In this document: positions 1,868 through 25,532 of the stretch, one piece after another
How positions within the stretch are numbered: the first letter of the stretch is position 1
How the letters are laid out: the number at the start of each line of letters is the position of its first letter
Assembly (NCBI RefSeq): GCF_902652985.1
Contig: NC_047018.1
Location: 3,720,001 to 3,784,000 of the forward strand
Origin: Pecten maximus
Taxonomy: Eukaryota
DNA length: 64,000 nucleotides
Direction: 5' to 3'
Program-made: the position numbers and the translations under genes
The notes under the pieces: model-generated
What the model was told of the DNA's origin: nothing
Databases searched by the model: none
The model's input: only the letters and a program-made list of their open reading frames with translations

Positions 1868-3937
1868 TTATTGAGGTCCATTAAATTGGTCAAACATCTG
1901 TATCAAAGCAATCAAGAACTCATCAGCATCCCTTAGTGTTTGAATACGAGGAATTTCGTCTCTAGCCATTCCAGTTGCAAGTTCAAGAATTTGCAGCAAC
2001 TCATCTTTACAACCTCGAGACGGATATTCTGTTGTGTATTCACTTGCGATTTCGTCTATGGTCTCCAAATTACAAGGAAGTGGATGAGAGCAATCAGAAG
2101 TTTCGTAGATATCAGGTTGATGGTAAAGTACATCTGGGATTCCGTGAGGTATTCGGAGTTGTCGTTGGGCTCTGATTCGGTGAGAGTTCCAGTTCAAGAC
2201 GAATATATCCAATTGTTCTTGAATGATGGGTAAATAACAAAATCGTATGCATTCAATATGCAGAGGATTTGTTGTATCCAACATGCCGCTATCTCTCATG
2301 TCTTGGAATTTATTTCTCCAAAAGTCAGTGAATGTAGTTCTTAAGGTACCCCATAAACGTTCAATTCGTTGGTTACCGCTTGATCTGGCTGTAATGTAAC
2401 TTCTAATGCCGTCCATTTCATCACCGTGATGCATTCGGAGACTCGTTTGCAAGTCCTTTACTAATACATTCTCGGTACCAGCATCTCCTCTTACAATGTG
2501 CGGAACCCTTCCCAGCGTGATGATGAACTTAAGATATAAGTTTGCAATTAATTTTGGATTGTTATTAGAAAATCCAGCTTTTAACCACAATATCTTTCTT
2601 GAGAATCCATCTATAGCTCCATGAATAGCAACACCAAACGGTTTAAGCTTATCATATCCATCGATGTGTACGAGGTAGTTAGGACCTTTGCTATAATATA
2701 ATCTCCGTCTTAAGCAACGTCTTGATCTCAGATACACTCCTTCTACGTCCATGATGCTTAAACATGCTCTTACTGTGTTCTGAGTTACTCTTATCCCATG
2801 GACAACATTTAGTAATCTCCACATTGCTTTGTAACCTAAATTGCAAAAACCATCTCGGTGCATATCAATAATTTTCTGTATTATTATTTGTAATGGAACT
2901 TCACATGCGTGTCTCCTTAATCCAAGTCTTAATTTCATTCTTTTCAGTGTTGACGTACTTATGAGAACTCCATGAACAAACAAAAGAAAACCGCATATTT
3001 CGCGTGAATTATACAAAAGTCCGAAGTAGTATCTGACTAGGTCTTCAACTTGTGCATTATCGCCTGGGTATGGAATAACAGCCTCTGACCGCATTAAACA
3101 ACACAGAAATATCAGGTACTGAAAATAGAACCACATTATTTTGATATATATAAGCACCTTTATAAGCTTAGTACACATACAGCTATAAATAATGCACGAT
3201 ATACACAAAGAAAACCTCATTTTAAGTTATGGAGATAAGCCTCAAACTGTGTAATATGTGTGAGAATGAACAGTATCCGTCAGGGCCGAGATTTGTTCAT
3301 TCTCACACATATTTCACAGTTTGAGGCTTATTTCTAACTTAAAACATAGCCATCCTTTGTGTTAATATAGAACACATATACGTTTAATTTAAACCAGAAA
3401 TGCAGCCTTTTGTTTATTAACTTTCTAAAACAATGCAAACTCTAGAGCAACATACTAGTAATATATGCAGGTGCATTTTGTGCAAGTTAACAAGTTTTGT
3501 TCTCATTCAATTTTTCCCTATTTTGCTTTGAAATACAGAAAATGTGACCTTTTGTTTGTTGCTTAATGCGAATACAAGGGGATTATGACGATATTACCTT
3601 TTACTTTGTTATATGTTACTGTGTTATATTAGAGTCACATATAAGACGGTAAAAGGTAACATTTAGAACAGTTACAGGAAAATAATTTTGCATATGTAGA
3701 TATTTCTTTTTTTTTTTTTAACAAATCAAGAATTTATCGATCTTCAATATAAATAGACAAACAAAAACAATAAAGCTTAGTTATAGTAATTCACTCATAT
3801 TGTTTTCATCAAATACATTGTATTTTCATTACGTTCATGATAATAAAATCCTTGGCAAACTATGTAAATTACTTGTATCATGCATATACTTATTTGTACT
3901 GCATTAACAGTGTTGAACCTACCTTTGATAATTCCAT
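1868..3937 (-). CDS. Integrase-core (DDE) transposase, IS3EU-like, about 421 aa
   Basis: Uninterrupted ORF with an N-terminal HTH-like region (LVRYYF...EICGFL...HGVLISTSTLKR) and DDE motifs HIDGYDKLKPFG...IDGFSR, RGDAGTEN and NQRIERLW. Proposed exon 1 3923-3937 (MELSK|gtaggt) splices in frame to the acceptor ttttcag| at 3118; exon 2 1868-3118. Exon 1 is less certain than the main ORF. Confidence 0.85.
3233..3332. repeat. Palindromic hairpin element with ~40-bp arms, in the transposase intron
   Basis: agataagcctcaaactgtgtaatatgtgtgagaatgaaca is the near-perfect reverse complement of tgttcattctcacacatatttcacagtttgaggcttattt, with a ~20-bp spacer. Confidence 0.8.
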
Positions 3938-5393: not shown

Positions 5394-6205
5394 ATGTACA
5401 TCACATGTAAACTCATGGAACTTGTCATAACAAGCACCATAATGAACCACTTGGAGAACAATAACATTTTATACAACCTACAACACGGATTTCGTTCTTC
5501 AAGATCTTGTGAAACACAACTTACTATACATTCATCCATGACCTTGCCCAAAACGCTAACACAAACACACAAACATACATGTACATCACCATCAAGGACT
5601 TTGCCAAAGCCTTTGACAAAGTACCACACGAAAGACTTCAGTACAAATTAAATTTTATGGGATTACACGGAACACACTCGCATGGATAACAGACTTCTTA
5701 ACACACCGCACCCAAACAGTAGTACTTGATGGGAAACACTCAGATAAAATACTAGTAACACCAGGAATATCCCAAGGAGCCTGTTTGGGACCCATCCTCT
5801 TCCTCATTTACATAAATGATTTACCAGATTATTTTAAACACAACACCCTCAGACTATTTGCAGATGACAGCATCATTTACAAAACAATACACAACATCAA
5901 TGACGCGACCAAACTACAACAAGACACAGTCGCATCAGGCAAATGGGAACACGATTGGCTGATGACCTTTCACCCCGACAAATGCAATATCATATCCACA
6001 TCCAACAAACGCACAAAAATTAAATACCCATACAAACTCCACAACCACACATTACAACAAGTAGATTCCAGAAAGTACTTAGGCATAACATCACAAAACA
6101 ACCTAAATGGGACACGCATATAAACAACATCACATCAAACGCAAACAAATCACTAGGATTTTTGAAACGGAACCTAAAAATTAACTCAGAACTTCTTTCC
6201 TCACA
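5394..6205 (+). mobile_element. Decayed non-LTR retrotransposon reverse transcriptase fragment (CR1/Jockey-like)
   Basis: QHGFRSSRSCETQL, DFAKAFDKVPH, QG..LGPILFLIYINDLP and LRLFADD across frameshifts. Confidence 0.9.
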
Positions 6206-8593: not shown

Positions 8594-9121
8594 AAACAAG
8601 CTAAATGTTTACCATATCAATATAGTGTAACCATAGGTGTCCAATAACCTGTTGTTATAAGCTTTCAGGACTACCGAGAAACTTGATAGAATCTACTCCT
8701 TCCTGTTTCCAGAGTGAGAATTCAACTCTCCAGTGGACGTTTTGGCATCAAGCGTCACTGACGAGTCATCAGAGTGATGTCCCCAGCATTGATTTATCGT
8801 CGAAATATATTATGGGGGTAAGTGCACTTTCCCAATTGATAGTGCTATGTATTGGATATTAAAACATCGACGGAATCGGTACAGTTTAAGTTAATACACT
8901 GGGTAAATCTGTGGCCAGAACATTGCTTCGGAAAACTAATATGTATATAAATAAATCAATATCCGATCTCATTTTTAGACATTTTCTCTTTACATACTTC
9001 ATACATATACAAGCAAATAGTAGTGTTACCAATCGAATATACGTATAATAAAAAAAAACTAGACATAGACCTATGTATTTCTGTATACGGAATTGCAGCT
9101 CTGTATGTCAGTATGACGTCT

Positions 9122-12100
9122 TCAACATCCTCCCCTGTAAATGAAATATAAATGTGTTAACGACACATAACCGATAGGACTATCCATCTAATGAACTTTC
9201 CGTATTAGAGAAGCAGTGTTCAGACCAAAATATGGAATAAAAAGAAACGTTTATTAATTTCTTTGACTTCTTTTAGACTATTGCCCTTTCCCAATCTTAT
9301 TACTGCCATACGCACAGTTTAACAGCGAAGATAAAATTTTAAGGTAACTTTTAAGATTGTCGCCTGCACAGAGATCTAAACTTCTACAAGTAGGATGTTT
9401 GGTTTGATTTGGTTTCAGTATTGTTTGATGTCCTATTAACAGCCAGGGTAACTTAAGGATGTTAGAAATAATTACGTAATTTTACACGAAACAAGTCACC
9501 ATATACTCTACTCACCTGCACGTTGCGTAACAGTTCTGAGACATGAAGGCGGCGAAGGCACTGACGGGAGAACAGAAACCCATACGTTTCCTGTCCTCAC
9601 AGTAAGACTTGGGATAGTTGTCTCCACACGGCACTTAAATGATAGATCATTTCCGAAAGATTAAACGTAAACATATGATAGTCTTGATATCTTGAGGTTA
9701 AATATGAAAAGCTGGATGTACATAAAGATTCAATATAATATATCATAATGTTGCAAATCATTCATGATTATGGTTAAATTTTAGAAATATTCGCTCGTAA
9801 AATAAAATATACATTTAAACCTCGCCATATGGACGTATACGGAGTACATGTATATTATCTACTATCATTAAGATTCAATTTCAAACAATTTCAAACAATT
9901 TCATTGACATACAAACTGATGACAGAAGGACTGGATACCAATAGAGATATGGTGCTCCAATCATCCTTATTTTTATTATTAATATACTCCTACCTTATAC
10001 ATGTCCCCGGGTAACTTAATATACTTGACTCCTACCTTCAGTGGTGGTGAGTACTGGCGCCAAATGTAAGTCGTCCTTGCTGATAAAGCCCATCTCTAAC
10101 AATGTAGTGACATACTTCTGTGTCGCCATACTCATGGCCTCCTAGATGTCGTACAAAAATGGGGATAAGATATACCTAAAATCAAGCATTGGGTGGGGGC
10201 TGCGATATATATACGTTACAATGTTTTCAATTTCATATTTGATTGTGTTTTTTCTACAAAGAAACATTTGGGAAATGATTTGAACCACCCTAAAACTGGG
10301 TACTATTTTGCAATGGTGGCAACGTTTTGCTAATATTTTGCACCCATTTCCCCAATACTGACATATTCAAGTTTCTTCGACTTACACTCAGAGGGTTACA
10401 TAAGGGGACACACAGATTATATAAGGAGAGAATCTACCATCGACTTACAATGTTGTTCAAGGTGAAGTAGATACGTAACTCGGCGCATGGAAGGATGCTT
10501 TTGCCTATTTAATCTTATTATTTTAAATGATGAAAAACATCTGTTTTAAATTCCTCACCTCTAGAGTGGCACCTGTCCCCACCACTGCTATTCCACTGGC
10601 CACATCCTGTATCATCACGCTATTGCCTGTAGCGTTGAGCCTCACACCTCGTCCAAGGACTGTGTGCTGGAAGAAAGAACTTCCTGCTTAGCGGACGTGT
10701 TTAATCATACTTAATGCTAACTTGATGGAAAAATATTGATAGATGCCTCGAGATAATTACTCTAACAGGTAAGGGAACATGCGTAGTAATGATCGCCTAA
10801 AGAAGAGGATTATACTAACCCATCCAATATATAAAACTATATAATTACATATGAATTTTATGATATCACATGACGATAGATCATTTTACTTACATATGGA
10901 TGGTTTCCTAACAAATTGTCACTTAGATATGTCATAAACTGCTTTTCAAGTTGAACAATGCCTTCGGTCAATGGAGCGAGAAAAACTGATGCCGCTCCAG
11001 CCACAGGGTTCACTGCTGCAAGGGCAGCGCTGACACCTGCTGATGCCGCCGCCGAACCTGCTGATGCCGCCGATGTTGCTGCCCCGGTCGATGTTCCACC
11101 TTTCCTAACGTCTACACCTGATGTCAATAGTCTACCGAGTCCTCGGTATTCATGGCCATACACGCTGCACACAAGGAGTACTGAGATGTAAACTGAAAAA
11201 AATGACGTGAAAGAAAGTCAGCAAAAGGAACGCGGAAAAAAATGATACGCTGCGAAATAAGCAATTGATTTCCAGAACTTAGTTTTGGTAACATAAGCGT
11301 TTAAACATTCTATATTTCGATTTCATACGAACACGGACTTAGTTTACGCAATCTTCCTCAACTCCGTCCCCGCACCGTAATCTGTATATTGTAATTGACC
11401 ATTTTGAATTCCTCAACCCGGTCCCCACACCACAATCTGTATATTGTAATTGGCCGTTTCGAAATCCTTAACCCCATCCCCACACCGCAATCTGTGTATT
11501 GAAATTGGCCATTTTGAAATCTTCAACCTCATCAATGACCAACGAACATTTCCTATTACGTTGTCCACTTTTCGCGCAGTTTCGCTTACGTTGTTTTAGT
11601 GCTCTAAACTATCCCTTATCAACTGAAATACTACTCTTCGGAGATAACGAACTCACGTATGATGAAAATCTTTTTTCAGTGTTCAAGAATTTATAATTAT
11701 TTCTAAAATATTTGAATGATTGTTTTTTTCTTGTCCAGTACACAGCTGTTACAACAGGTTGTATATCTCATGTCATGGCATAAAAAGCCTCTCTAATATT
11801 TTTCTTCTAATCTTTTCATCTCTCCTCTTTTCCGAATTTCCCCATTTTTCATCTCTACAAGTATTACATTTGCTCACTTATGTATTCTCCCATGCTGCCG
11901 TTTACTTAATGTGTCATAAAAGGAGACGGATTAATATAAGTTTAATACTTGTTTCCGAATCCCATTCAAATTATGATTGTATGATTGTATATTGCATATG
12001 TATGAATTGAATGAATAAAATAAAGTTTATATTAAATCTTCAACCCCATCGCCACACCGCAATTTAGCCGTTTCGAAATCCGCAACCCCATTCCCACGTC

Positions 12101-12948
12101 ACAATGTGTATATTGTAAATTCCACAACCCCGTCCACACCCTGAACCATTCGTTCGAGTTAACCTCCCTTACTCCACTCTCCACCTAAACTAACTGGCCC
12201 GCCTATAAACCCTATCTGATCCTATACTCCATCCTTTCCTATTTGATCGACTGGTATATCACGTAAACTCAAATCGACAATAAAACGTCGAGTACCGTAG
12301 TGAAAACCATTCAAGGTGACTATCACACAATGAAAACAGAACGAGGACATCATGAAGTTTTATTACTGTCAAAGTTACGGACTGGCTTCGTGAAGTCTAA
12401 CCAAATTCCCTTGGTAATAGCTGCACCACCACAATTCTAACCAATTACCTCTAATGTTCAGTCCGGGTGGGACTTAATGCGGTGCCCAATGTTAGCACTG
12501 GCCACCATGCACGGGAAATATCCCACTGCGGTTTTTCGATTAGAGACACATAATAATTAAATAGCAATTTGTTAGGACTACTCTATCACTGATAGTAGGA
12601 GAAGGGCTAATATTGTTTTCTATTGATACTAACCAGAAGCAGATGCCTGTGATACAACCTGCATCAACGGCCAAGGCACATATGCTATATAAACAAATCA
12701 TTTAGCTTGACAGCAGTCTAAGGTTTATTTCGCTTTAACACCATCAGCTGAAACGTTTGTAACCTGTCTATATTTCTCAGTAAAACTCTCCCAAATACTA
12801 TATATCTGTGCCCTGTTGACGATTTCTGGTCCTCTTCTCCGTGTGTGACACATATAGACAAATAGACAATAATTAAAATCAATTGAAAATGAAATAATTC
12901 TACATATAAAGTCTCACCTGGCAACCTCATCATGGTAGGCCTTGGCAT
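9122..12948 (-). CDS. Secreted protein, about 224 aa: signal peptide, A/S/G-rich linker, ALF-like or HicB-like domain, C-terminal ShKT domain
   Basis: Six GT-AG exons with compatible phases: 12918-12948, 10894-11192, 10559-10666, 10036-10141, 9516-9633, 9122-9134. N-terminus MPRPTMMRLPVYISVLLVCSVYG. C-terminus PCGDNYPKSYCEDRKRMGFCSPVSAFAAFMSQNCYATCRGGC* fits the six-Cys ShKT pattern (C.D...C...G.C...M...C..TC..C). TATA box about 35 bp upstream of the ATG. Confidence 0.85.
11350..12140 (+). repeat. ~53-bp minisatellite interrupted by a LINE 3' fragment (about 11530-12030), in intron 1 of the ShKT gene
   Basis: Unit ..tcaaccccatccccacaccgcaatctgtatattgtaattggccgtt.. on both sides. The insert encodes HFLLRCPLF..LLFGDNEL (LINE ORF2 C-terminus) and ends aataaaataaagtt. 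Confidence 0.7.
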
Positions 12949-13284
12949 TGGGGTTATCTAGTCACTTGGTCTACCTACGTGCTTATATAACGTTTGTCAG
13001 CTGATAAACTAGTAGACCTTAATAATTCTCTATTCACTGTTTTCGAACATAAATAATCTGTTCTTCGCAACTGCAATGTCCGTTTGATTATTTTGTTTTT
13101 AATATTCAATAAACTGTTTAAATATTTACTCCTTAACATCTGCAATACCTTTAAACTTTTCCCTGGTAAGATAATAGGTAAAAATAGCAAGTGTCCGTTT
13201 GAAGGGACATTGACGGGGACAGAAGATATATATATGGCGGGATAGATAAGAGTTTGTGTCCTGTACTACACATAGCTGTTAACG
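12949..13284. promoter_or_regulatory. Compact divergent promoter region between the ShKT gene and EMI-like gene A
   Basis: ATGs are 336 bp apart head-to-head. TATATAA on the - strand at about 12984-12990 and TATATATA on the + strand at about 13227-13235. Confidence 0.55.
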
Positions 13285-15269
13285 ATGAATGGTGTCACAG
13301 GAACTCTACTCCTATTGAGCGTCCCGGTTCTAGCCAGCTTCTTTTGGAGCATTGATGGACGGACAATAAAGAGGGCAGGCGATAAGTATGATTCGGGGGG
13401 TATTTCAGATTAATACGTTTTCTTCAAAATATCGTGATTTAGAAGCAAATATCATTATCTGCAAATTGTTTATTACAATTTGAAATATGTAATGCTGTTA
13501 AGGTGGATTTTCTCCTCACCGTGCAGATAAATGGGTTGTATATTGTACTATAATAGGGCATGTGATATCTATAGCTTACATTTACTGCGATGTATTATTC
13601 TTTAGCTCCAACTGGTGTTGCGAAATAGAACCACAAAACACGACGAGTAATTTTACCTCGATAGAAATACACCAGTTCACGAAGGTGATATGGGAGGAGA
13701 TAGAAATCCCTGAGCACCGGTGTACGTATGGCGAGGAGGCGACAGTCGGACCGATAGGATTTTACTGCACTGGTAAAAAGAACGTGTCCAGGTCAGCTAT
13801 TTACCAAATCTTTGTAAACATCGAGAACACCTTAATGTCATTACTGTTACTAAATATTAGAACACCTGAATGTCATAACTGTTACTAAATATTAGAACAC
13901 CTGAATGTCATTACTGTTACTAAATATTAGAACACCTGAATGTCATTACTGTTACTAAATATTAGAACACCTGAATGTCATTACTGTTACTAAATATTAG
14001 AACACCTGAATGTCATAACTGTTACTAAAATATTAGAACACCTGAATGTCATTACTGTTACTAAATATAGAACACCTGAAGTCAGTCTTCACTTAAATAG
14101 TGAACACCTGATTCATTTATCTGTCACTAAATACTAGAACACCTGAATGTCATTACTGTTACTAAATATTAGAACACCTGAATGTCATTACTGTTACTAA
14201 ATACTAGAACACCTGAATGTCATTACTTTAACCAAATACTAGAACACCTGAATGTCATTACTGTTACTAAATATTAGAGCACCTGAATGTCATTACTGTT
14301 ACTAAATATTAGAACACCTGAATGTCATTACTGTTACTAAATATTAGAACACCTGAATGTCATTACTGTTACTAAATATTACAACACCTGAATGTCATTA
14401 CTGTTACTAAATATTACAACAACTGAATGTCATTACTGTTACTAAATATTACAACACCTGAATGTCATTACTGTAACCAGATATTAGCATATTCATTGGT
14501 TCACCTACTGTTTACTTCACATAGAACAATTGCGTCTGATTTTCTGCTACGGAATACACACTTTTGTTTTCTAAAATGTGTTCGATCGTGTCCGACTAAA
14601 GAAAAGTCGTTAATTTGAGAAGGTACGAGTTAACTTGTTAAACTAGACCAGTTTGGTGATACATATTAGTGCAATTGTAAAGTTTGACGTTTCTTCTCTT
14701 GATAAGAACTATCGCCGTTGGAAAAACCTTTCATCAGGACATTTGCAACGTTTTGAATGAAATCTTGCACACTGGCAAAGTTCCTTACCTTTCTTTATAT
14801 GCTATACATTTAGCTGTGGAAGAATGATTTGTTTTCATTCCACGGCGTATTTTTTGTACACAGGATGGTGGTCAGATACGTACAGGTGCCCGTGGTAAAG
14901 CCCCTCATACAACAGGGGGTGTGTCCCACGGAACATGTGGTGTGTTGCGAGGGCTACACCAAACAACAGGACCAGTGTCTAAGTAAGTTGTAGATACACA
15001 TCAAAAAGCGTGTTTTGCTGTTAAAAAAATAAATAAAAATTAAACGTATGTTATCAAAACGCTTAAAACAAAAACCTATAATATTGCAATTTTGTTGGTC
15101 TTGTAAAAGAAAGGTCTTGATATTTATTTATTTATTTGACCGTAATCGACTGCGATAGACATGCTTTTCTTGTCGTAATTGATAATCTTATTGAAGCAAA
15201 CTTGCTCCTACAGAATCCTCTGCTGTTGACTCCCTCCAGGCCCTCATCGATGCGGGATTGGTTGGATAA
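13285..15269 (+). CDS. Secreted 8-Cys EMI-like preproprotein A, about 153 aa
   Basis: Exons 13285-13385, 13606-13791, 14864-14982, 15214-15269 (intron phases 2,2,1). MNGVTGTLLLLSVPVLASFFWSIDG-RTIKR-AGDNSNWCCEIEP...HRCTY...FYCTG...GVCPTEHVVCCEGYTKQQDQCLKSSAVDSLQALIDAGLVG*. AATAAA at 15312. Confidence 0.85.
13823..14475. repeat. 35-bp minisatellite, ~18 copies, in intron 2 of gene A
   Basis: Unit agaacacctgaatgtcattactgttactaaatatt. Confidence 0.95.
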
Positions 15270-16389
15270 GGACTGATGACCAATTATCTATAAATCCTTA
15301 TACATAATATAAATAAAAACAAGTATATAAGGTTTATGTTTTGTTGTCATTCCATGTCATAAAATAACATTGTACGTGTATTAGACTACATATTCGTGAA
15401 GGAATTGAAGTCCGTGTTGTAGTTTTACATCCGTCCTGTATCGTATAGCGGGTGCTATGAGACGGGGACCTCATTTGACCACGATGTAATTATCATTTTT
15501 ATGTCATCGCTTCATTGGGAAAGTAATGACTTAGATGTTCAAACTGACGTTAGGAAAGCGAAAACAGCATAATGGTGGTATATATATTAAAACGTAAATG
15601 TAAATAAGTAATGTTATAAAGTGTTTTTATTGCTAACAGAGAAACATAAAACATTGGCGGGTGTACTTAATGAAAATGATGATGTTATGGTCAAAATAAC
15701 AATTACAACACAAGAAGCAATGCATTTCCAAGTTTAAAAAAAGTTGAACAGCACCAATGAGGGTGTAACAAACGTCATCATACAAAATCACTTGAGTAAG
15801 AATATACTGAGTTAGTTATAGGGATATATATGGCGAGGATCTGTCGCTACTCGATATTCTAATCATGATATAGATGATTTTCATTCCTATTTAAGTTCTC
15901 CACATTGAAATTCATTTTTCGGAATTAGTCAAGTAGTATTTCAGATGTTATAAAACTTCGAGATCAGCATTCAAACATACTTTAAGTACCTATTGATTTT
16001 ATGTTATTTCGCTAGTAAATAATTCAGCAAGAATGTTAAGGATTTCAACCTTAACGCTGGTTAGAATAAACAACCGTATAATGTCTAGCGTGAATATAAC
16101 GATATCACAGCTTATCATTACAAACAAAAACAAAAAAACAAGTTGCTTGTATGGGGAATTCTTTATAATATTCACAGGTATTACTTATTTTGATCACATC
16201 ACTTCATTGGATCCAACCAAAGGAAACATAAGGACACGTGGATAAAGTCTCAACGTTTGTGCTTTGCTAGCTTTAGTGAACATGTGACCGATGCTAGGAC
16301 ACAGATTATTTTATCTAGTACAGTTCTCGGTTCGAAGAAAGGTTAACCCGATAGTGAGTTCTGTCTGTTTGATTCCATAGATATCAAAC

Positions 16390-18353
16390 ATGGGCGACAT
16401 GTTGAGATTTAATTTGATGCTTGCTGCTTTACTTGTATGCCTTCCATCTTTTTTATTGGAGTCAGTACTACACGATGAATCAACGATGTTTGGAAATTTG
16501 AAGTATGATTCCCTGCCGGACCACGTGAAAGAAGTCTTGCGTGAAAGTAGAGCCTCTGGGGATGAATCGTAAATATAATATAACATTATTACTAGATTAT
16601 TATAATTATGTGACTAAGCGTACGTGTTATTTATTTATTTATTTATTTATTTTTGTGATCTCATGTTGGACCCGGGTCTGTTCAATTGAGTATAATCGGG
16701 AAATATGTACATTTACGTAGATGTCTCAGGCTGATTGTATTCGCTGACTATACTTTTGTCTTTTAGAGCTCATTGGTGTTGTAAGATCAATCCAACCAAA
16801 ACCATAGTGGATTCACGAACCGTGTCTGTGACAGTAGTCGTTCCAGTAAGACACACCCATTCTAAAAGTTGTGGGTTTTTATGGACTAAAAGATGCACCT
16901 CGACCTCTTACACGACTGGGTTAGTCTACTGAAAAGTATTTTTTACAGGTTTATGGTCAGAAATAACCTGTAATAAGTAATTATGTTGATTTCTAAAGTA
17001 GAAATGATGATAATGATGAATCCACACGGATAATTTCCTGTTTGTTATAACTACACTGAATGATACATTCATACTTTGTTACAGTTAATTAATGACACAA
17101 TCATACTTTGTTACAGTTAATTAATGACACAATCATACTTTGTTACAGTTAATTAATGATACAATCATACTTTGTTACAGTTAATTAATGGTACATTCAT
17201 ACTTTGTTACAGTTAATTAATGGTACAATCATACTTTGTTACAGTTAATTAATGACACAATCATACTTTGTTACAGTTAATTAATGACACAATCATACTT
17301 TGTTACAGTTAATAAATGACACAATCATACCTTGTTACAGTTAATTAATGGTAAATCATACTTTGTTACAGTTAATTAATGGTACAATCATACTTTGTTA
17401 CAGTTAATTAATGGTACAATCATACTTTGTTAAGCTTTATTAATGACACAATTATACGTTATTACAGTTAATTGATGATACAATCATACCTTGTTAAGCT
17501 TTATTAATGACACAATTATACGTTATTACAGTTAATTGATGATACAATCATACTTTGTTGCAGTTAAATAATGATATCATGATTCCCATTCAAAGTAGAT
17601 TCTATGAAACGCGTTGATTTCCATTGATAAAGTACTTGATAATAATAATAATGGTTATAATGAAAAAATATACTGGTTATGACTAAAGGTACAGGAGAGC
17701 GTACAAGGCGACCTACACCAGCAGACTGGTACCCACCACCTGTCCAGATGAACATCTAGTGTGTTGTAAGGACTTCATCAAAGTCGCGGATCAGTGCTTG
17801 CGTAAGTCAAGATTGTTAACAAAATATCCACTACAAGTTAGGATTACGATTTTATCAAATAAAAAATATATTGATCCACCTATATTACATGGTATTACAT
17901 GGTATTACATGATATTACATGTTATTACATAGTATTACATAATAGTACTTGATATTACATGTTATTACATAGTATTACGTGGTATCATATATTATTACAT
18001 AGTATTACGTGGTATTACATAGTATTACATAAAATTACATAGTATTACATGGTAGTACATAGTATTGCGTGGTATCATGTATTATTACATAGTATTACGT
18101 GGTATTACATAATCATTATTTAGAGTAATTAATGTTCCTGTCATTGAAATAGTGTAACTGTAAGGAGGTTTTATGTTTTACGTTTTAGATATTTTTTTTT
18201 ATATAACCCGAATTGTTTTTTATCTGACAATTATCATAAAGGTATCATAAAGATATAACGTAACTTAATTACATTGTTTCAGCTCAAAATCGACTCACTG
18301 ACATTAAGGATGACTTGCTGAAGTTGCACGACGCAGGAATAGTTATTGGGTAA
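16390..18353 (+). CDS. Secreted 8-Cys EMI-like preproprotein B, about 171 aa
   Basis: Exons 16390-16568, 16767-16919, 17689-17801 (alternative in-frame acceptor at 17695), 18283-18353 (phases 2,2,1). Signal peptide, then YDSLPDHVKEVLRESRASGDESAHWCCK...SCGFLWTKRCT...YRRAYK...TCPDEHLVCCKDFIKVADQCLP...DDLLKLHDAGIVIG*. AATAAA at 18376. Confidence 0.88.
17055..17570. repeat. 32-bp minisatellite, ~16 copies, in intron 2 of gene B
   Basis: Unit caatcatactttgttacagttaattaatgaca. Confidence 0.95.
17880..18110. repeat. 10-bp minisatellite in intron 3 of gene B
   Basis: Unit gtattacat(a/g). Confidence 0.9.
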
Positions 18354-24370: not shown

Positions 24371-25395
24371 AATAATAATAATGGTCTTTATTTATACTTG
24401 ATAACATGTTGAGCTTAAAAACTCGTCTTACACATGGTCAAGATAAGTAATAGAATATACAATATTTACAACATATAAAAGAATAATACTATAACATTAA
24501 ACAAGGCACATATGATATAAAATACAAGATAATTTTGGAGCTGCCATTAAATGTAAAGGATAAAAGTACAACTACATCAGGATTACAGATTACTCCATAA
24601 AAAAGTTCTTTGCTGCTTTCTTAAAAGATAAAAGTGTTGAACAGTTTCTCACATTACTTGGTAAAAGATTCCATGTGTGAGCTCCTTGATATTTAAAAGA
24701 CTTTTTGAAAGTATTTGTATTGTGAGATGGTAAGTAAAAAACATTTGTGGTTGAGAATCTGGTAGACCTACAATGGACATCAGATATGCTAGTAAAACAA
24801 TTTAAATTTTGTGGAGCTAGGTCGTTAAGTACATGTATCTTGTACATAAAACAGACTGACTATATAAATCCTTTTTCTAAAAGGCAGCCATTTTAGTAAT
24901 TTAAACATGTCATTAGATGGAGTTAAAAAGTCACAATTTAAAATAATTCTGGCTGCTCTCTTCTGAAGACGCTCCAACTTAACAATATTCTTTTTTGTAC
25001 TATTGCCCCAGACAGTAGCACAGTAGTCAATATGAGGATTGATAAAACAGTTAAAAATAAAAAATCGTAATACTGGAAGTCTGGCTTAAAATGGTCTTAT
25101 CTTTTTCATTTGAAAAATTTGACATGAGATTTTTCTACATACATTTGAGAACTGGTAATCCCAAGACATACAATCATCAACTGATTCTCCTAACAGCTTT
25201 TCGTGTTTTACATTTTCTATATTTACATTGTTGATGACAGATAGTTCACCTTTTAATTTACATTTCCTCTGTGAGGTAGAAGCAAGCATAGCTTTGGTTT
25301 GGTCAGGATTAATACACATTTTGTTAACATCACACCATGATGAAACTGACTTGGCATCCTCATTGAGGTTTTTATTTATATCATCAATAGATTTC
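24371..25395 (-). mobile_element. 5'-truncated L2/CR1-group LINE (RT C-terminus and 3' tail)
   Basis: INPDQTKAML..., EKLLG..VDD.MSW, PHIDYCATVWGN, KKSFKYQGAHTWNLLP..VRNC.TL.SFKK. AATAAA then an (ATT)n tail on the - strand. Confidence 0.85.
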
Positions 25396-25532
25396 AGCTG
25401 TAGAAACAGCTGTATGGTGTCCCTAACATTACTGGTGAGTCCTTAAAGGACGAAACAGCTGTATGGTGTCGCTAACATTACTGATGAGTCGTAGAAGGAC
25501 GAAACAGCTGTATGGTGTCCCCAACATTACTG
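25395..25532 (+). ncRNA. Hammerhead array block 4; near-intact copy at 25475-25518
   Basis: acatta-CTGATGA-gtc(gtagaag)gac-GAAA-cagctg-TA-tggtgt. The preceding unit has the mutated core CTGGTGA. Confidence 0.82.

Follow-up and report, generated by a model that had tools for sequence, protein, structure and literature searches.

A scallop gene encoding a cysteine-free domain of predicted anti-lipopolysaccharide-factor-like fold joined to a ShKT module

The locus and its transcripts

A 64,000-nucleotide stretch of the genome of the scallop Pecten maximus (contig NC_047018.1, positions 3,720,001 to 3,784,000; this whole stretch is called the window here, and coordinates are given in its numbering) carries on its minus strand, at 9122..12948, a gene whose product is listed in the database as uncharacterized LOC117324998. 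Our analysis places this gene in a conserved lophotrochozoan family whose proteins combine a predicted fold like that of the anti-lipopolysaccharide factors (ALFs) with a C-terminal ShKT tail. Coding exon 1 (12918..12948) specifies residues 1-10 from a Met at 12948, while a Met at 12930 is the start common to P0002 and to the paralogue P0003. Exon 2 (10894..11192, residues 11-110) contains the rest of the predicted signal peptide, a short basic segment, an Ala/Ser/Gly-rich and hydrophobic segment and, at 10894..10977, the first part of the predicted ALF-fold domain, namely amphipathic helix 1 (residues 83-110). Exon 3 (10559..10666, residues 111-146) supplies all four predicted beta-strands together with a short cysteine-free hairpin, and exon 4 (10036..10141, residues 147-181) the two predicted C-terminal helices of the domain and a Pro/Thr-rich linker. 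The ShKT module is encoded by exon 5 (9516..9633; Cys184, 193, 202, 216 and 220) and completed by exon 6 (9122..9134), whose 13 coding nucleotides carry the sixth cysteine (Cys224) and the stop codon. The coding exons sum to 675 nucleotides, giving 224 amino acids plus the stop, all five introns are of the GT-AG type, and database protein P0001 (224 amino acids) agrees with this model, in which we recovered both the middle region and the last ShKT cysteine on a 13-nucleotide exon proposed by the first-pass annotation. The 3' untranslated region extends over 8979..9121 on the same strand; one contig (run X11) has a loose end of poly(A) type at 8979, and further contigs extend to 8973-8984.

Splicing was assessed from the contigs of eight of the 24 listed runs, representing five studies; such contigs give neither tissue nor level, and only X1 and X2 are on record as RNA, the remaining runs being presumed RNA. 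Spliced joints of the gene were present in seven of the eight runs and four of the five studies, with no joint found in run X12. Intron 1, seen as joint 11192/12918, is supported by five runs, introns 2 and 4 by seven each, and intron 5, seen as joint 9133/9515, by three. The intron 3 joint that uses the 10141 acceptor occurs in six runs, exactly in three and with the paralogue's base in three, and no alternative exon 4 acceptor, the outcome that the first-pass annotation had set against its own proposal, is listed in the eight runs. Since the paralogue is 92-96% identical at the DNA level in exons 3-5, some of these contigs are paralogue transcripts; contigs free of its diagnostic bases nevertheless bridge introns in X2, X5 and X10, so that the window copy itself is spliced as modelled. 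The gene is spliced and expressed.

Several contigs depart from this pattern. One from X2 runs from exon 2 at 11194 into sequence absent from the window and from the other loci retrieved, and may be a chimera or reflect an alternative first exon; intron-containing contigs at 9232-9608 and 9579-10065 (X1, X2) represent unspliced precursor or DNA. A joint at 13385 does not represent a 5' untranslated exon of the same gene: its GT-AG signals lie on the plus strand, and it is part of the neighbouring gene.

Protein layout and the ShKT module

By hydropathy, residues 11-21 form a hydrophobic core of the signal-peptide type, and hydrophobicity and motif point to cleavage near G23; an N-terminal hydrophobic stretch is present in all nine sequences checked. 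The basic segment that follows ends in the dibasic site R40-K41, and a dibasic site between signal and domain was found in six of the nine sequences, four of them from scallops. Residues 42-82, Ala/Ser/Gly-rich at first and then hydrophobic, make up a segment that is long in scallops only, after which come the middle domain (83-176), the linker (172-183) and the ShKT module (184-224).

The six-cysteine ShKT pattern is intact. Exon 5 alone scores 22.3 bits against Pfam ShK, above the cut-off of 20.9, and the whole protein 17.8, below it; the best PDB match of the ShKT family profile is 7l2g (E 4e-5), and the PDB relatives include sea anemone peptides. A C-terminal module of this kind is shared with other ShKT-domain proteins (PF01549; ShK, BgK, aurelin, molluscan CAP-ShKT and M12-ShKT), from which the scallop protein differs in its partner domain, of predicted ALF fold instead of a protease, CAP or tyrosinase, in having three residues between the last two cysteines where the others have two, and in the Lys-aromatic dyad, missing in nine of ten sequences of the family. 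The dyad of ShK is defined as Lys-Tyr (PMC6409789) and precedes the fourth cysteine. F211 is invariant, and the residue before it is A, T or S in nine of the ten sequences and Lys only in the Pinctada protein; with Lys in just one sequence of ten, the dyad of ShK is absent. On its sequence, this is a ShKT-domain protein, yet by the dyad criterion not a ShK-type toxin.

A defensive toxin, whose ShKT module would block potassium channels of predators or parasites and whose ALF-fold domain would act as carrier or membrane anchor, would fit both the six cysteines with their sea anemone relatives and the homologue in a nemertean, nemerteans being a toxin-secreting group. Channel block, moreover, neither requires the dyad nor follows from it alone (PMC6409789), which tempers the argument from the missing lysine. 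Nevertheless, together with that missing lysine, the conservation of the family in filter-feeding bivalves and the frequent occurrence of ShKT as an accessory module of non-toxic multidomain proteins (PMC6409789) make a toxin very unlikely.

A family of bivalves and a nemertean

The P. maximus genome contains at least two copies, the window locus and one 3.25 Mb away on the same contig (from three single-exon searches, which give lower bounds), and orthologues are present in Mizuhopecten and Ylistrum. A single-round search of 1.84 billion representatives with a scallop-only profile of the middle domain, which sets a minimum for the range, returned eight matches at E<=0.001: P0001, an unnamed Logan protein, proteins of Saccostrea and Pinctada, two isoforms of Lineus longissimus, a single-exon fragment and a spurious bacterial repeat protein. 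P0010 (1135 amino acids, bacterial Ig repeats, a 32-residue match) was dropped as a relative, and P0011 and its cluster mate P0013, apparent single-exon read-throughs, were excluded from the folding alignment. Word-based searches with alignments, in which about 8,000 candidates each were scored, yielded no further relatives. None of the pattern matches, 19 viral, 71 from metagenomes and 65 prokaryotic, was confirmed as a relative, and at this low sensitivity there is no indication of a microbial origin.

In all ten aligned sequences the middle domain is followed by a ShKT-type cysteine array, with six cysteines in eight of them and an end after five in the other two, and within the core (111-175) 25 of 65 residues are identical between scallop and nemertean. 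As the same layout occurs in bivalves and in a nemertean, the fusion of the two domains would predate the mollusc-nemertean split. The first-pass annotation had expected such a fusion to be unusual; it is not a peculiarity of this locus, conserved as it is from scallops to the nemertean. According to a 2018 survey, ALFs seem to be restricted to marine chelicerates and crustaceans (PMC6213531), and the ALF species row of PMC13518417 names crustaceans only in its visible part. Among the titles listed in the literature, with supplements and most subscription journals, which carry much of shellfish immunology, outside the coverage, we found none that describes an ALF or a protein like it from molluscs or nemerteans, no published mention of these loci, which expression tables in supplements may list, and no instance of the ALF-fold and ShKT architecture in the literature searched.

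The paralogue (P0003, G000:C4:6973843-6986968) is 74% DNA-identical to the window copy in exon 2, which, next to the far higher identity of exons 3-5, suggests that the 3' part has undergone gene conversion or that exon 2 has changed fast. Its intron 4 measures about 8 kb as against 402 nucleotides in the window copy and holds on the minus strand an 819-amino-acid open frame that looks DDE transposase-like by eye. One X7 contig fuses paralogue-type ShKT bases to the 3' untranslated region of the window locus and may be an allele or a chimera.

The middle domain and its relation to ALF

Structural comparison of the predicted middle domain gave the shrimp ALFPm3 (PDB 2JOB) as the top match, covering the whole domain and lying 2.7 Z units above the next one, with 8% identity and 10 ALF residues left unaligned. 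The model shows three helices packed on a four-stranded sheet, so that in predicted fold and predicted secretion the protein corresponds to an ALF; it likewise contains the helix, three strands and helix that form the core of dsRBD and HPF. A full-length model from four sequences was set aside as too weak. In ALF genes three successive exons encode in turn helix 1, the beta-sheet and the pair of C-terminal helices (PMC6213531), and scallop exons 2-4, with phase 0 introns, split the predicted domain likewise, a resemblance at the level of which element lies on which exon that is suggestive only.

The ALF disulfide, Cys34-Cys55 (PMC10672452), joins cysteines separated by 20 residues (PMC6213531). 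The scallop domain contains no cysteine in any of the ten aligned sequences, which bears out the first-pass annotation on the missing pair, and the hairpin of the model covers residues 116-131. The invariant residues of exon 3 are R116, V118, I129, D131, G135 and G142, with a basic residue at 119. On a register read from the model, the structural comparison having given no residue pairs, V118 and D131 are the likely equivalents of the cross-strand cysteine pair at the hairpin base, 12 residues apart; the hairpin would then be about eight residues shorter than that of ALF, which would explain eight of the 10 unaligned ALF residues, and a salt bridge between R116 and D131 may replace the disulfide. 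Seven charged LPS (lipopolysaccharide)-binding residues on the sheet of ALF are enumerated in PMC3701609. On the same register about one of these seven group B positions is kept, namely 119, right after the first cysteine, which is R or K in all ten sequences, and the remaining ones map mostly to small polar or aliphatic residues. The net charge of the domain ranges from -5 to +1 across the alignment, and binding of LPS by it is doubtful.

Furthermore, the ALF profile PF11630 gave no row at E<=10 for any of 11 proteins (HMMER filters drop weak matches), and run against the P. maximus genome it found nothing at the LOC117324998 locus and, elsewhere, two matches below threshold, one containing stops (E 0.5) and one in an 805-amino-acid frame (E 3.5). 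Searches of the middle domain returned nothing significant in Pfam, PHROGs (best E 0.07) or NCBIfam (best E 0.02), the families concerned being unrelated, and nothing significant in PDB sequences, where TATA-binding protein rows at E 0.6 are taken as chance. ESM Atlas had no feature match for either P0007 or residues 75-178 of P0001 and only structure rows with TM < 0.5, and Foldseek against viral models gave no match at E<=0.001. Given the 8% identity and the missing PF11630 match, sequence-level homology to ALF is not demonstrated. As the protein lacks the disulfide, the full hairpin length, the cluster of charges and a match to the profile, we do not file it as an ALF.

The 8% identity and the lack of any HMM link would fit convergence, as would the small size and commonness of the fold. 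In that case a secreted domain of independent origin, from the common alpha/beta class that includes dsRBD, HPF and HicB-like folds, would only resemble ALF, and the likeness would be uninformative on function. Foldseek indeed ranks dsRBDs first for both models of the middle domain, and the Pinctada protein has one weak Pfam row, DUF7387 (E 0.017). Of the HicB or dsRBD alternatives offered by the first-pass annotation, dsRBD is the next-best fold class after ALF and HicB is absent among the 50 rows listed in the fold comparison. However, dsRBD and HPF/RaiA are basic intracellular RNA binders that cover less of the domain, whereas the scallop protein has a signal-like N-terminus, which predicts secretion, and a neutral to anionic domain, and no dsrm or HPF Pfam row was found for the family proteins. 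We regard convergence as rather improbable and homology to ALF as fairly probable overall, the likeness to ALF first seen by eye being supported by the predicted fold and not by the sequence.

Compared with the ALFs of chelicerates and crustaceans (PF11630; ALFPm3, Limulus ALF), which are single-domain proteins, the family of bivalves and a nemertean has an additional N-terminal segment and the C-terminal ShKT module. Among its closest parallels, as anionic ALF-type proteins, are the group D shrimp ALFs, which keep two of the seven LPS-binding residues and bind LPS 20-fold less (PMC3701609), and the crab scygonadins, with a shorter hairpin of 17 residues (PMC6213531); unlike the scallop protein, both groups retain the cysteine pair and lack a ShKT module.

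Neighbouring genes and repeats

A plus-strand gene at 13280-15280 (GT-AG joints 13385/13606, 13788/14861 and 14982/15214) is arranged head-to-head with the scallop gene and codes for a small product that starts with a signal-like stretch and whose cysteine pattern is EMI-like by eye; Pfam had no match for the two of its exons scanned. RNA contigs span the interval from 12918 to 13385, so the two genes may overlap at their 5' ends. Exons 1 and 2 of this neighbour were duplicated along with the paralogue (91-95%). A second spliced plus-strand gene, at 16362-16921 and beyond (joint 16568/16767, next exon near 17691), is predicted to encode a similar secreted cysteine-containing protein, and its scanned exon likewise had no Pfam match. 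Mobile element remains comprise an integrase-core open reading frame (rva_4, E 2e-36) at 1868-3226 on the minus strand and a reverse transcriptase fragment (E 5e-12) at 5617-6123 on the plus strand, reported together with a further minus-strand frame at 25086-25442 that has no significant Pfam match. Long, strongly GC-skewed arrays of tandem repeats occupy about 13830-14480 and 28000-62400.

Discussion

With its predicted signal peptide, cysteine-free ALF-fold domain and ShKT module, the protein could well be secreted for host defence and bind to the surfaces of microbes, a reading that we favour over the others but put forward tentatively. After removal of the signal peptide, a convertase would trim the precursor at R40-K41. 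The exposed sheet of the ALF-fold wedge would then contact the microbial envelope with modest affinity, helped by amphipathic helix 1 and by R119, the one basic position that is retained. In a neutral to anionic domain that lacks the long cationic disulfide hairpin, LPS binding would be weak, like that of shrimp group D ALFs, and the protein might serve in recognition or tagging more than in potent killing. On its flexible Thr-rich linker, the ShKT module would provide a stable unit for interaction or effector function and would not be a classical Kv blocker; aurelin is an antimicrobial peptide with a ShKT fold (PMC6409789).

A true ALF homologue might instead have a non-immune extracellular job, as a mucus, shell-matrix, reproductive-fluid or wound-repair protein binding a host lipid, glycan or protein. 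The loss of the disulfide and of nearly all LPS-binding charges would suit such a role, as would the one or two copies per genome and the well-conserved core (25 of 65 residues), unlike expanded and fast-changing antimicrobial families, and some shrimp ALFs respond to tissue damage and not to pathogens (PMC6213531). Anionic ALFs without most LPS-binding residues are nevertheless part of shrimp immunity (PMC3701609), the precursor layout appears similar to that of host-defence peptides, and no non-immune association of these loci was found in print; we consider a non-immune role unlikely.

If the structural homology to ALF holds, the family represents an unrecognised candidate immune protein for farmed bivalves, and, as a natural ALF scaffold without the hairpin and disulfide that are held to be the functional core, would make the role of the remaining fold testable. 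With somewhat less assurance than for the host-defence reading, we consider it possible that the ALF family is not confined to arthropods but dates to the protostome ancestor, with bivalves and nemerteans keeping a disulfide-free, ShKT-fused branch that recognises microbes without the LPS-binding hairpin, in which case the cationic hairpin with its disulfide, as seen in shrimp and horseshoe crabs, would either have been added to the scaffold later or have disappeared from the bivalve and nemertean branch. Structural homology in scallops, oysters and a ribbon worm would place the beginnings of the defence family as early as the ecdysozoan-lophotrochozoan split.
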